From: Candidatus Sigynarchaeum calidifontis
GTDB taxonomy: Archaea > Asgardarchaeota > Lokiarchaeia > Sigyniarchaeales > Sigyniarchaeaceae
Length of the DNA stretch: 64,000 nucleotides
NCBI GenBank assembly: GCA_030587475.2
Contig: JAUQYZ020000078.1
Coordinates: forward strand, 22,113 to 86,112
Direction of reading: 5' to 3'
Under the pieces are notes generated by a model that made no database searches, was not told the DNA's origin, and worked only from the letters and a program-made list of their open reading frames with translations. The first letter of the stretch is position 1. The number at the start of each line of letters is the position of its first letter. Shown here in pieces: positions 18,182 to 64,000 of the stretch. The translations under genes and the position numbers were made by a program.

Positions 18182-19387
18182 TTAATCGTGTCGATGGTCT
18201 TGAAGCGATCGGTACCAATGCGCCCCTCTTGCTAGATACGCGCGGAGGATCGATAAACCCCCTTCAATCGCCGTGACCGAAGCCACGACGATGTATATCC
18301 ATTCCGAAAAGGCCGCGAGGTCCGGTAGCTTGATCGGGATGAACGCGATATAAGCGGCGACGAGCCAACCGACGAGCAGCAGCACGCCGGTCGTGCCCCG
18401 CGCGCCGGCGGGGAACAGCTCGGAAACGACGTGCCACGCGGGAAGCACGAGCGGGATGCCGAGCACGATAACGGGGAAGGTGATGAGGGTACCCGTGGAA
18501 GCCATGTAAAATAGAAGTGCCAAGCCAGCCCCGCCACACGCGATAGCGGCGATGCTTCCCCACACGGGCCATTTTCTCGTAACGATCGCGACGAGGGCTG
18601 CGATCGCCGCCCCGGCGATCACGTTGCTGAACAGCAAGGAGCCGTTGACGGGATCGACGGGGATTTTCAAGTGCCCGAAAAAGACGAGCATGGCAAGGAG
18701 CCCGATCCCGGCGGAGAGGAACCAGGAGATCGTTCCCGTGATGGCCATGGCGACATGCCGCCCCGGCAGCACGGGCAACGGCGAGGGCTTCATGCCAAGC
18801 CATGGCAACAACGTGCCGGCTCCCTTCCCGGCCAAGACGATCAGCCCAGTTGCCGACGCCGCGAGCGACAGCATGAGGCCCGTGGTCGACGGGACGAGAA
18901 GGGTCGTGAAAAAATGGATACCCGTCCCGAGCGCGAGCCCAGCGGGGAAGATCACGTTACCTTCCCAATTGCCAGAGCGGGAGCACACCTCGAGCATGCC
19001 GCCGCAAAGCAGGATTGCCAGGCATGCGATGGCCGCGTAGTTCAGTGCCATTGGCTGGGTCTCGACACCGAGAAACCCGACCAGGGGGATGGTCTGGTTC
19101 GCATACTCCATGACAGGGTACTGCACGAGGGTGAGGAACCCCACGACCGCCATACTCGCGGCGCTCGCAACCGTGACCCAGAACGTCTTTCCCCGGGTTG
19201 TCGTTAGTACCAAGATGCCCGCGAACACCGCCACGCCCAGGAGCACGAAGTCGAAGGCCGTCGCGTTCTCGAAATAACCTCGCGTTCTCGTGAACAAGTG
19301 GAACGGGGCGACCAGGCCAGCATCGAGCCCGCAAGCGACCAACAAGACGCGGAGCGGAAAGCCCGGCCCGTCTTGTCTTGCGGTCAC
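18182..19387 (-). CDS. Unassigned 12-TM membrane protein (6+6 topology)
   Basis: About 12 hydrophobic segments with a central Pro-rich loop; GTG start overlaps the upstream GH stop (GTGA). Confidence 0.7.
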   Translation of the reverse strand: MTARQDGPGFPLRVLLVACGLDAGLVAPFHLFTRTRGYFENATAFDFVLLGVAVFAGILVLTTTRGKTFWVTVASAASMAVVGFLTLVQYPVMEYANQTIPLVGFLGVETQPMALNYAAIACLAILLCGGMLEVCSRSGNWEGNVIFPAGLALGTGIHFFTTLLVPSTTGLMLSLAASATGLIVLAGKGAGTLLPWLGMKPSPLPVLPGRHVAMAITGTISWFLSAGIGLLAMLVFFGHLKIPVDPVNGSLLFSNVIAGAAIAALVAIVTRKWPVWGSIAAIACGGAGLALLFYMASTGTLITFPVIVLGIPLVLPAWHVVSELFPAGARGTTGVLLLVGWLVAAYIAFIPIKLPDLAAFSEWIYIVVASVTAIEGGLSILRAYLARGAHWYRSLQDHRHD

Positions 19388-20946
19388 GGCACACCACCTC
19401 TTGCTCGTTTATTCGATATCGTGGCGAGTAAACCGGTACGCTTGAACAAGAACAAGAGCCCGAGCATCAATGCTGCTGGCATGCCTACAAGCAGCAATAT
19501 CATCCCTGGGGTATGGGTGAACTCGACAAAAACGGCGAGTGGTTGATCTATGGCCGCCGGGTTCGTGTAATTGAGCTCGAGCAGCACGGGCGTGAAACCG
19601 ATATCGATCGAGTACCGTGCAACGCCGGTCGTGGTTCGAGAGCCATTCGCGAAGTAATCGTAATTCGTGGCGTGGAAGGGAACGAGAGCCCCCGCGCTGG
19701 AAACCGGAGAAACCAGCGAGATCGTGGCGGACGTTGCGGTGTTCTGCGACCAGAGCACGAGGACGGTCGTTTTGCGAGCAGTGAAGAAGTAGGTCGCCCA
19801 CACCTTGCCACCCGCGGGCGCGCGGACAGCCACCCCGCCGGGGAAACACGTGCCGTTCTGGATGAGATGGCTCAAACGCCAGTATGCAAAACCTGCTGGC
19901 TTGAGACCATAGGTATACGTCGTTTTATTGGTGCATTCCATCAAGCCAAATCGTCCCTCGCCTTCCGTGTCGTTCACGTCGCACCAGTCATTCTGGCAAT
20001 ACCAGAAAACGCTGCTAATGTTTGCCGGGATCGCCTCGGCGTACACCTTCAACACCTGGGTTGCCTGGTATCGATTATTCTCGGCGACGAGGGTCGTGCC
20101 GATCTGCGCGTTGGTCGCGACCGCCGTGGACATGCCGATTTCCGTGATCCACACGGGCTTGTCTTCCATGCCGTGTGCGGTCATCCATTCGTGCACGTCG
20201 GCCATCTTCTGGACCAGGCTTTCGGCATTCCTGCCCGAGTACGCGTGGTATGCGATGATATCATACGTGTCACTGAAGTTCTGCAGCCCATAATAGGCGA
20301 CCATCTTGTCGAGGTACTCGATCTCGGGGCCGACGATGCCGGGCGAGAGGATGATCGCTGAGGGATCGTTTATTCGCACGATGGACGCGAGTTTCTGCGA
20401 AAACTCGAAAAAGTCGTTGTCCGACCCGATCCAGAAGCCGATGTTCGGCTCGTTCCAGATCTCGTAGTATTTCAGCGTACCCGCGTACCTCGTGACGAAA
20501 GCTTTCGTAAAGTTGTAGTAGTATGGCCAATCCTCCCTCGGTAAAGCTTTGTTGTTGGGCCACCAGCCCCATCCATAAACAAAGCAACCGAGCGACTCGA
20601 TGCCCCGGCTCGTGAGGTTCCCGAACAAGTTATCGTAATACTGGAAGTTGTAAATGCCCGCGGTCTTGCCGTAATACCTAGCGCACTCGAACCACTCGAT
20701 GTTGTTTCGTAATATCCGCGTCCCTAACAATCTCGTGTTGTTCGCGTGGTATTCCCATTGTGCCGGCGCATGGCTGATGCACATCTGGTCGACGACGGGG
20801 ATCGCCGACGCCGGCTCCAGGGTAACCGGGCCAGTGACGTCGGCCGGAACGAGGGCATACACCGGTAAACCGACGCCCACCACGATCGTGGCGATGATCA
20901 AGCCGAACTCAAGACTTCGCTTTGAATCATGATCTCCAACGGCCAT
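19384..20946 (-). CDS. Membrane-anchored clan GH-A glycoside hydrolase (GH39/GH5-like)
   Basis: YYEIWNEPN (acid/base), IAYHAY, PVWITEIG (nucleophile), FGL; N- and C-terminal TM anchors; many sequons. Confidence 0.85.
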   Translation of the reverse strand: MAVGDHDSKRSLEFGLIIATIVVGVGLPVYALVPADVTGPVTLEPASAIPVVDQMCISHAPAQWEYHANNTRLLGTRILRNNIEWFECARYYGKTAGIYNFQYYDNLFGNLTSRGIESLGCFVYGWGWWPNNKALPREDWPYYYNFTKAFVTRYAGTLKYYEIWNEPNIGFWIGSDNDFFEFSQKLASIVRINDPSAIILSPGIVGPEIEYLDKMVAYYGLQNFSDTYDIIAYHAYSGRNAESLVQKMADVHEWMTAHGMEDKPVWITEIGMSTAVATNAQIGTTLVAENNRYQATQVLKVYAEAIPANISSVFWYCQNDWCDVNDTEGEGRFGLMECTNKTTYTYGLKPAGFAYWRLSHLIQNGTCFPGGVAVRAPAGGKVWATYFFTARKTTVLVLWSQNTATSATISLVSPVSSAGALVPFHATNYDYFANGSRTTTGVARYSIDIGFTPVLLELNYTNPAAIDQPLAVFVEFTHTPGMILLLVGMPAALMLGLLFLFKRTGLLATISNKRARGGVP

Positions 20947-20947
20947 G

Positions 20948-62576: not shown

Positions 62577-62577
62577 G

Positions 62578-64000
62578 ATGGTATTAACAAAGTGCAATCA
62601 CGTGAAACATGGTTTCGTGGCCACGATGATCGCGATATTCGCGATCATCACTCTCGGGTGTACATCGGTAATGCCTACCCGCGGCTACACGCCGTTAGAC
62701 ACGACCGGCGCGATCCCGATCAAAGATCCGTTTGGCTCGTGCCATGCCGACTCTTATTCACTCATGGCCGATCTCGGGGTCAAGAACAATCGCAAAGACA
62801 TCACGTGGGCGGAAGTGGAACCCGCGGATGACGCTTGGAACTGGGCAAATTGGGATGCGCGGGTGGCCGGGCTCAAGGCGCATAACCAAACGGCCCTTCC
62901 CATCCTCGATTACAGCAACTGGGCGGTGCAGACCGGATACCCCAGGTACGGGAACGTGATCAACACGTCACTCGACATGCAAGAATGGCTCGAGTACGCG
63001 AACATGTGCGTGGAACGATATTACCAGAATGATAGCAATTACACCAATTATTGGGAGCTTTGGAACGAGCCCAATCTCGGAGATGTCGGCGCCAATTCTG
63101 GATTTTGGACCGGCACTGATAGCGAGTATTTCACGCTCCAGAAAACCACGGCTGCCAACTTGAGTTCCAGGTGGCCTGACCTCAAGCTCGTTTCCGCCGG
63201 GATATCCGGCCACGACCCGAAATACCTCGACGCCATGTTCGCGAGCGGCGCCATGGAGAACGTCGACGTGCTCGCGTTCCATCCATACTCTGGTTCCAAC
63301 TACGAGAATCTCGACATCAAGATCGCCGAGGTGCAGGCCGTGGCTGACAAGTGGGGTTTCACGGGGCCGCTATGGATCACGGAGGTCGGCATGTCGACGC
63401 AATTCAATCCTGATCAGCCAGGCTTCGAGCAAATATACCAGGCCACGCTGGAATTGCAGGCAACTCTCGTTCCCAAGGTTTACTGCCTTGCCCTCGCAAA
63501 TCACGTCCCGTTCATAACGTGGTATTGCTTGTGGGATTTTGCCGACTGGAAATGGAGCGAGGCCAACTTCGGGCTCGTGTTCGACGGGTCGAACCCGTAC
63601 AAGCCCGCCCCGTACAAGTTTGACACGTACAAGCCATCCGGGTACGCCTACAAGGCAATCGCCCACCAGCTCAACTGGAGCACGTACATCCCGCGCGGCG
63701 TCATCTTGGCCAACCCTGGATTGCCCAGCGCTCCCAGGCTGCGGACATTTTATTTTTTGAAGGGCAACGGCGACGTCGTGTTCATTTGCTGGAACGCCAA
63801 CGGCGACATCCCGACGGACATCGCGTTTTCCATGCCCGCGGACGGCGTCGACGTCTTTTCAGCGCCGTCATACAAGCCGGGCCTCGCGACCAACTACGCG
63901 GTGGAGCACATCACCGGTGGTATCACGATCCGCGCGCGGATCGATTTTCGCCCCTTGATCTTCGTGATCGAAATTAAAGCGACCGCGAGTCCAGCTGCGG
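62578..64000 (+). CDS. Membrane-anchored clan GH-A glycoside hydrolase (GH39/GH5-like), truncated by the window edge; paralog of 19384..20946
   Basis: Absent from the ORF track (no stop in window). Manual reading from ATG 62578 gives an N-terminal anchor, RKDITWAEVEP, YWELWNEPN, LAFHPY, PLWITEVGMST, NFGL. Confidence 0.85.
   Translation, partial: MVLTKCNHVKHGFVATMIAIFAIITLGCTSVMPTRGYTPLDTTGAIPIKDPFGSCHADSYSLMADLGVKNNRKDITWAEVEPADDAWNWANWDARVAGLKAHNQTALPILDYSNWAVQTGYPRYGNVINTSLDMQEWLEYANMCVERYYQNDSNYTNYWELWNEPNLGDVGANSGFWTGTDSEYFTLQKTTAANLSSRWPDLKLVSAGISGHDPKYLDAMFASGAMENVDVLAFHPYSGSNYENLDIKIAEVQAVADKWGFTGPLWITEVGMSTQFNPDQPGFEQIYQATLELQATLVPKVYCLALANHVPFITWYCLWDFADWKWSEANFGLVFDGSNPYKPAPYKFDTYKPSGYAYKAIAHQLNWSTYIPRGVILANPGLPSAPRLRTFYFLKGNGDVVFICWNANGDIPTDIAFSMPADGVDVFSAPSYKPGLATNYAVEHITGGITIRARIDFRPLIFVIEIKATASPAA

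Follow-up and report, generated by a model that had tools for sequence, protein, structure and literature searches.

By which route do the products of Asgard carbohydrases enter the cell? The Sigynarchaeum lineage, which has been reported to encode many extracellular carbohydrases (10.1101/2021.04.02.438162), offers a place to ask it. The stretch analysed here, called the window below, comprises 64,000 nucleotides of Candidatus Sigynarchaeum calidifontis (contig JAUQYZ020000078.1, positions 22,113 to 86,112; contig C140 of a genome 89% complete) and encodes four surface glycoside hydrolases (GH), each tied to an unannotated membrane domain of 12 transmembrane (TM) helices. The answer favoured here, at slightly better than an even chance, is that these modules are hydrolase-coupled importers, which would cut a substrate outside the cell and import the product through an attached carrier with the fold of the major facilitator superfamily (MFS). 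Counted over the genome, such modules would amount to about 25 unannotated candidate carriers, and in each the attached enzyme would hint at the substrate.

The four membrane domains are designated M1 (18182-19387, minus strand), M2 (within 27537-29867, plus strand), M3 (within 32440-34950, minus strand) and M4 (61287-62576, plus strand). The open reading frames (ORFs) on which the original prediction was built, made from the letters of the window alone, were all present at these positions, and its count of 12 helices in each of the four domains was borne out by a hydropathy scan and by reading the translations by eye. M1 (401 aa) and M4 (429 aa) are orphan proteins. The stop codon of a GH39-like gene, G1, overlaps the start of M1 by 4 nt, and M4 ends 1 nt before the ATG at 62578 of a second GH39-like gene, G4; both junctions had been described correctly. 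The other two domains are parts of fusions, the layout of which was read in the same way. The ORF 27537-29867, the frame of which is open from 27423, encodes M2 (27537-28730), a K/R-rich loop, a 13th helix that would carry the chain outside (28800-28859) and a GH18 head (28860-29867). The ORF 32440-34950 encodes a signal anchor and a GH113 head (33900-34950), a single helix returning the chain to the cytoplasm (33826-33888) and M3 as the C-terminal domain (32440-33705).

Lysine and arginine residues on the cytoplasmic and the outer side numbered 12:4 in M1, 25:3 in M2, 33:9 in M3 and 23:3 in M4. This bias places the termini of the 12-TM domains in the cytoplasm and the fused GH domains outside. 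It also supports the role proposed for the extra helix of both fusions, since one helix lies between core and head and the positive-inside bias puts the head outside. Sequons for N-glycosylation were concentrated in the heads. All four membrane domains are under purifying selection, with dN/dS values of 0.20-0.31 (0.25 for M1) against a congeneric genome; the heads gave values of 0.10-0.18 in the same comparison.

None of the four membrane domains matched a Pfam or NCBIfam family. AlphaFold2 models were made for M4 and M3 and were searched against known structures, as the original prediction had proposed. The M4 model, built from 14 sequences, reached a predicted local distance difference test (pLDDT) score of 86 and a predicted template-modelling (pTM) score of 0.87. 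Every match listed by Foldseek was an MFS protein, as were 50 of the 50 matches listed by an exhaustive structure search (for VAChT, Z 24.5 and a root mean square deviation, rmsd, of 4.0 over 346 aligned residues), and the Atlas shape comparison agreed with MFS. By shape M4 also resembled a TM-LuxR cluster (TM 0.69). When a 36-sequence profile of M4 was compared by hhalign with a profile of the genome's own 49 MFS proteins, values of 90.7% (local) and 96.8% (global) were obtained over 303-403 columns, with controls below 3%. Predicted fold and profile alike place M4 in the MFS superfamily, as a distant member that belongs to no named family.

The M3 model was poor (pLDDT 62). Its C-terminal bundle matched one half of an MFS protein with Z 12.5 and rmsd 3.8 over 176 aligned residues, a value that alone is within the noise for helical bundles. 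MFS proteins accounted for 50 of the 50 structure-search matches listed and for the top Foldseek matches, while the global profile score of M3 against MFS was 6.6% over 382 columns; M3 probably has the MFS fold. M1, with both termini inside, aligned in register with the M4 family profile at 27-56% probability (E 1e-4 to 7e-4, up to 332 columns; controls below 3%), so that it too probably has this fold, judged from sequence profiles. Relatives of M2 were found in the congeneric genome and on one metagenome contig, too few for a profile, and profile comparisons with these three sequences gave no link to any other domain. Its Atlas features scored 0.90 for an unnamed cluster, 0.89 for TM-LuxR and 0.86 for MFS, which is a lead only. 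The MFS topology suggested for all four domains is thus shown by the model for M4, probable for M3 and M1, and no more than possible for M2. PGAP2IP/Cwh43, MFS-spermidine-synthase, Wzx/Wzy and GT-C proteins were considered as other candidates for the membrane domains and had no support from Pfam or NCBIfam, a blank that does not exclude them; the fold searches with M4 and M3 listed MFS only.

The low mutual similarity noted in the original prediction was confirmed, as pairwise phmmer comparisons of the four domains gave no match. When about 90 other membrane domains of the genome were included, almost all were singletons. Among the four, M1 and M4 alone aligned, weakly and by profile; profile comparisons of M4 with M3, of M1 with M3 and of M2 with all others gave no link. 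The M4 family is represented 33 times among 1.8 billion, for the most part by proteins of about 420 aa; all have at most 540 aa and none is fused. Among 400 Asgard genomes the family was found in the host's family only. The nearest named relative of M4 (81% identical) is labelled Candidatus Sigynarchaeum springense. The M4 family keeps a Glu...Arg pair at the end of TM4, a Pro-Pro-Arg motif in loop 10-11 and conserved glycines on the cavity helices. All four domains have a basic residue close to, or at, the end of helix 11 that faces outwards (M1 K353, M2 R401, M3 K755, M4 K374), and it is conserved inside the M1, M3 and M4 families; this may be chance.

Catalytic residues were present in all four heads. 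G1 (19384-20946, minus strand) is a PslG-like ectoenzyme of clan GH-A with hydrophobic anchors at both termini, 10 sequons and the catalytic residues E166 and E269; in G4 (62578-64000, plus strand) these are E164 and E269. Scores of 16.4 and 22.4 bits for G1 and G4 against Pfam PF01229, the curated cut-off of which is 26, allow the designation 'GH39-like' only. A comparison with PslG gave E 3e-5 and aligned the catalytic positions. The signature of GH39 and clan GH-A, an Asn-Glu acid/base followed by the nucleophile Glu about 105 residues on, is present, and E164 and E269 are invariant across 12 homologues. The GH113 head (the beta-mannanase family) scored E 3e-51 and 175 bits against a Pfam cut-off of 27, kept E172 and E264, and its motifs align with those of solved mannanases. 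The GH18 head remained below threshold (PF00704, E 2.6e-6, 27.8 bits, cut-off 29.6) and had no match among PDB sequences; it keeps the catalytic D-x-E, with the first Asp of DxDxE replaced by Ser. By these residues the heads look like working enzymes.

G4 is cut by the end of the contig. Contig C73 opens with the missing C-terminal anchor, followed by a second M4 paralogue, M4', which gives an M4-GH-M4' triplet, and the triplet is intact in two relatives. What positions 63930-64000 of the window encode recurs, slightly altered, at 1-70 of C73, which points to strain variants where the contigs break.

Coupling inside the genome was assessed with gene calls made in this analysis. Orphan 12-TM genes were taken as those with 10-14 TM helices and 360-500 aa, and a neighbour was counted if it was encoded on the same strand, anchored and sequon-rich. 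Such a neighbour abutted 12 of 39 orphan 12-TM genes, 1 of 49 ordinary MFS genes and 48 of 4135 other genes; for orphan against MFS genes Fisher's test gave p=1.7e-4, or 7e-4 without the two pairs of the window. About a dozen further genes are fusions of 8-13 helices with a sequon-rich head. The heads that could be named were GH99-like (three), metallophosphoesterase (three), GH141-like and GH65-like in the split form, and GH123-like (six), GH9 (three), GH2, GH5/39 and peptidase S15 in the fused form, while several heads genome-wide had no family match. The module, first described as occurring four times and with GH heads, appears instead to be genome-wide, with about 25 candidates, and phosphoesterases, peptidase S15 and, in a relative, a PL8 lyase also serve as heads. 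Some of these candidates have 8-9 helices, one look-alike is AglB (contig C105), and weak MFS-profile scores were obtained for two genome-wide candidates only.

The pairing was also conserved in relatives. Of nine distant M4-family members that were traced, the most remote about 20% identical, seven lie beside a GH39-like gene and one beside a PL8 lyase gene, and the ninth has no such neighbour. All M3 relatives of sufficient length carry GH113. For the reverse test an enzyme was counted as coupled if it was fused to, adjacent to or one gene away from a 10-12-TM gene; kin are not independent and no statistical test was attached. In the same order, coupling was counted for 15 of the 18 anchored GH39-like loci and for 8 of the 11 GH113 loci, as against 0 of 3 and 0 of 6 in other Asgard lineages. 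Each of the two enzyme families was found both fused and split. The same holds for one membrane family, which forms a fusion with GH39 in G255 and G019 but is encoded separately in G257 and G230 (profile match 100%). The heads are less interchangeable than had been supposed, as the M4 family keeps GH39-like enzymes down to the same 20% identity, with the one swap to PL8, and the M3 family keeps GH113.

In a bacterial control of 71 GH39-like loci the module was all but absent, with one homologous fusion and three cases of unrelated 9-TM neighbours or fusions. The homologous case (L178:1564-4446) is a GH39-like/12-TM fusion matching the Asgard fusions with E 6e-22; it lies on a 7-kb contig with 63% GC in a metagenome-assembled genome labelled Ca. 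Hydrogenedentota, and was either acquired by gene transfer or misbinned. Two genomes of family f4 have a three-gene unit of 12-TM protein, beta-helix glycoprotein and GH39-like enzyme (L152:99-4456 and L154).

As the window copy of G4 is incomplete, the congeneric orthologues of M4 and G4 (69% and 78% identical) were co-folded, a check on the split pairs that had been proposed and was made for this one orthologous pair. Binding was predicted, with a complex score of 0.78 against 0.00 for the best control; runs agreed in at least 82% of contacts and the partner pLDDT was at least 85. Of 80 solved pairs 58 attained the mark applied to complexes, and of 110 mismatched pairs 2 did so, counts that hold only roughly with the alignments used. 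In the model the enzyme's C-terminal helix packs against TM3 and TM6, and its head sits on the outer loops 3-4, 5-6 and 7-8, to which the near-invariant M4 residues Y89, N97 and G167 (window numbering) belong. TM6 is also the helix through which MCT1 is bound by basigin and UNC93B1 by TLR3 (PMC8154325). The model supports binding in this pair but does not show it. Together with the enrichment, the conservation in relatives and the membrane family found both fused and split, this predicted complex supports the functional coupling that the original prediction had drawn from fusion and adjacency.

In the mechanism preferred here, a membrane-anchored, N-glycosylated hydrolase would cleave a polymer or conjugate outside the cell. 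In the split form its anchor helix would fix it to a dedicated MFS-fold protein, on the side where TM3/TM6 face the lipid, and in the fused form it would be joined to that protein covalently through the one extra helix. By alternating access the MFS-fold partner would then take in the sugar, or other small molecule, that the hydrolase sets free. Import is suggested because of the fold, the retained gate-type residues, the catabolic nature of most heads (GH2, 9, 18, 39, 99, 113, 123 and 141-like, PL8, phosphoesterases and S15), the family-by-family pairing and the missing parts of CUT1/CUT2 sugar ABC transporters: in the 89%-complete genome PF13416, PF01547 and PF02653 were not found, and PF00528 was found at six places. 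A wider claim is made more tentatively and falls short of an even chance: that one Asgard order expanded enzyme-carrier heteromers in which every surface hydrolase has a divergent MFS-fold protein to itself, attaches to TM3/TM6 of this protein through the anchor helix and passes the product on to it, and that these are a prokaryotic, operon-encoded, sometimes fused counterpart of the MCT-basigin and UNC93B1-TLR complexes, with an active enzyme as the ancillary chain.

Several observations weigh against import. Transport itself, its direction and the substrate are what we infer, as is the extension to M1, M2, M3 and the genome-wide candidates; M2 fits the MFS by its 12-TM topology but had no profile link. 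The absence of an obvious MFS motif A, noted in the original prediction, was confirmed: strict matches numbered 0 in the M1-M4 families against 12 of 49 among the ordinary MFS proteins of the genome (regular expression; loop 2-3 or 8-9), and the position aligned in M4 reads A-x-x-N-E-x-x-K, a degenerate form. Motif A is common but not universal in the MFS, and 37 of the 49 ordinary proteins lacked it by the same expression. Conserved charged residues inside the cavity helices are few, and divergence is extreme even between membrane domains with like heads. About 50 ordinary MFS genes of the genome could already import the products. At one locus an M4-family gene stands without a GH. In the closed relative G003 (L019:9394-9498, L020:6132-7688, L035:7098-9074) the triplet is disrupted: the two ends of the GH39-like gene lie far from each other, and an FG-GAP/RGL11-like domain has been joined to the C-terminal part. 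The GH113 fusion of this genome stops after about six helices; either rearrangement or assembly error would account for these breaks. As to the complex, the predicted interface was not enriched overall in conserved residues compared with the rest of M4 (p=0.52). Its high score may also be the predictor's memory of basigin-MCT1 and TLR-UNC93B1, because both complexes (PDB 7y1q and 7c77) are among the fold matches of M4.

Part of this evidence would suit a non-transporting scaffold or chaperone with the MFS fold, like UNC93B1, which would hold, orient or deliver its single-pass ectoenzyme while the products enter through ordinary MFS proteins. We regard this as unlikely, though still a serious contender. 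The predicted docking site on TM3/TM6 is where single-pass glycoproteins bind UNC93B1 and MCT1 (TM6; PMC8154325), and Y89, N97 and G167, which lie in the predicted interface, are among the most conserved residues of M4. The lost motif A, the cavities poor in conserved charges, the extreme divergence and the roughly 50 ordinary MFS genes all agree with it, and at one locus (L171) an ordinary MFS gene directly follows a GH113/12-TM pair. Against a scaffold, the cytoplasmic gate-type residues and the cavity glycines are still conserved, and a separate 45-kDa scaffold for each enzyme would be costly. Other Asgard lineages anchor the same GH families without any partner, so a chaperone is not generally needed.

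It is improbable that the modules are product sensors of the kind proposed for the 12-TM LuxR proteins of Coriobacteriia, with an MFS-fold domain that recognises what the hydrolase releases and relays a signal to a second protein in the cytoplasm. The resemblance of M4 (shape, TM 0.69) and M2 (features 0.89) to TM-LuxR proteins is in favour of a sensor, as is the likewise lineage-expanded, highly diverse and substrate-specific nature of the 12-TM LuxRs (PMC9734109). However, a cytoplasmic output domain was found in none of the four proteins nor in the 33 M4 relatives, and the GAF histidine kinase gene 85 nt upstream of M3, which would fit a sensor, is not adjacent in the relatives inspected, where no conserved regulator is nearby either. 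The resemblance of the GH39-like heads to PslG, the DegT aminotransferase gene preceding G1 and the chance that GH99- and GH123-like heads act on the cell's own glycans would fit a role in envelope biosynthesis or remodelling, with LtaA-like flippases or exporters beside glycan-trimming enzymes. This is quite improbable, as no glycosyltransferase or polymerase was a conserved neighbour across the loci read and the mannanase, GH9, GH2, PL8 and peptidase heads fit feeding better. It is very improbable that the four membrane domains are unrelated and alike in hydropathy only, with M4 alone derived from the MFS and no single module. M2 without any link, the weak links of M3 and look-alike fusions such as AglB and the heads on 8-9-helix domains would agree with this, but M3 fold searches list MFS only, M1 is in register with M4 over 332 columns, and both fusion orders follow the same topology logic.

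Neighbouring genes were inspected for further members of these units. A sequon-rich protein with 3-4 N-terminal helices (16632-18164, minus strand) is encoded directly downstream of M1, an order kept in the congeneric genome. Pfam, NCBIfam and the PDB gave no assignment, and it is a possible additional member of the M1/G1 unit. The DegT aminotransferase and the GAF kinase were dropped as unit parts, as neither adjacency was seen outside the genus. Between the two fusions (29874-32431, plus strand) a short divergent sulfatase-like ORF and a full sulfatase stand in tandem, and G001 has similar-sized ORFs at this position. Multi-TM proteins fused to a PHP-family metallohydrolase domain are encoded in the window at 42825-44567 (minus strand) and also at L072:70-2334. 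The window further encodes, at 1258-5115 (minus strand), a surface glycoprotein of 1270 aa that is a beta-helix (NosD-like) protein and has TSP3 repeats and 33 sequons. A GC-rich run of three genes (63-68%; 44825-48412, plus strand) ends in a family-B DNA polymerase gene and is possibly the archaeal PolB2 cassette. A protein of 2927 aa on contig C179 (L070:83-8863) is predicted to span the membrane about 85 times, and its residues 1950-2500 contain internal repeats of about 120 aa; neither an NCBIfam match nor a paralogue in the genome was found for it.

Literature searches on MFS-GH fusions, Sigynarchaeota membrane carbohydrate-active enzymes and Asgard MFS-fold partners found no description of such a system, as the original prediction had stated, with most subscription journals outside the search. 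New for archaeal surface-hydrolase units are the MFS fold, the enrichment and reverse tests, the equivalence of fused and split forms and the docking model. The modules extend the MFS fold to families undetected by Pfam and NCBIfam. They share with the MFS the 12 helices in two six-helix bundles and the cytoplasmic termini, and M4 matches by structure and profile (best solved matches VAChT 8zmr, VMAT2, ENT1 and NorA); they differ in lacking a Pfam MFS match and motif A, in their 8-15% identity and in being dedicated or fused to an extracellular hydrolase. The heads share catalytic residues and barrel motifs with PslG (GH39), GH113 endo-beta-1,4-mannanases and GH18 enzymes, but are membrane-anchored, sequon-rich and coupled to 12-TM domains. 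Extracytoplasmic hydrolysis encoded beside a carrier gene is familiar from E. coli glpTQ, from bacterial loci with GH and MFS sugar genes and from the polysaccharide utilisation loci (PULs) of Bacteroidetes. The carriers of these systems are canonical and are neither bound nor fused to the enzyme. The modules are not a PUL counterpart in the strict sense, as had been proposed, but dispersed units of one to three genes without SusC/D, binding protein or regulator at the loci read. The 12-TM LuxR proteins of Coriobacteriia (DadR, CadR and HcdR; PMC9734109) likewise have very diverse 10-12-TM domains, expanded in one lineage and associated with catabolic enzymes. What these domains carry is a DNA-binding domain in the cytoplasm, whereas the modules carry or bind an extracellular enzyme; in M1-M4 no PF00196 match to the LuxR helix-turn-helix was found, and the C-terminal tails are short.

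In LAT1-CD98hc (4F2hc) a 12-TM carrier is also paired with a single-pass glycoprotein (PMC8154325). LAT1, unlike the partner considered here, is not an MFS protein, and the pair is linked by a disulfide. The ectodomain of CD98hc is glycosidase-like (GH13-like) and inactive. The predicted assembly resembles that of MCT1-basigin and UNC93B1-TLR3/7, where the helix of a single-pass glycoprotein, the ectodomain of which is large, lies against TM6 of an MFS-fold protein, the same site as predicted here (PMC8154325); the logic of the units is like that of glpTQ and PULs. The archaeal pairs differ in their apparently intact hydrolase, in their adjacent or fused genes and in their host; shared ancestry with the eukaryotic complexes is no likelier than convergence on one groove. 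If the docking is true, the TM6 binding mode of eukaryotic MFS complexes would be used in archaeal relatives of eukaryotes, with a working enzyme as the partner.

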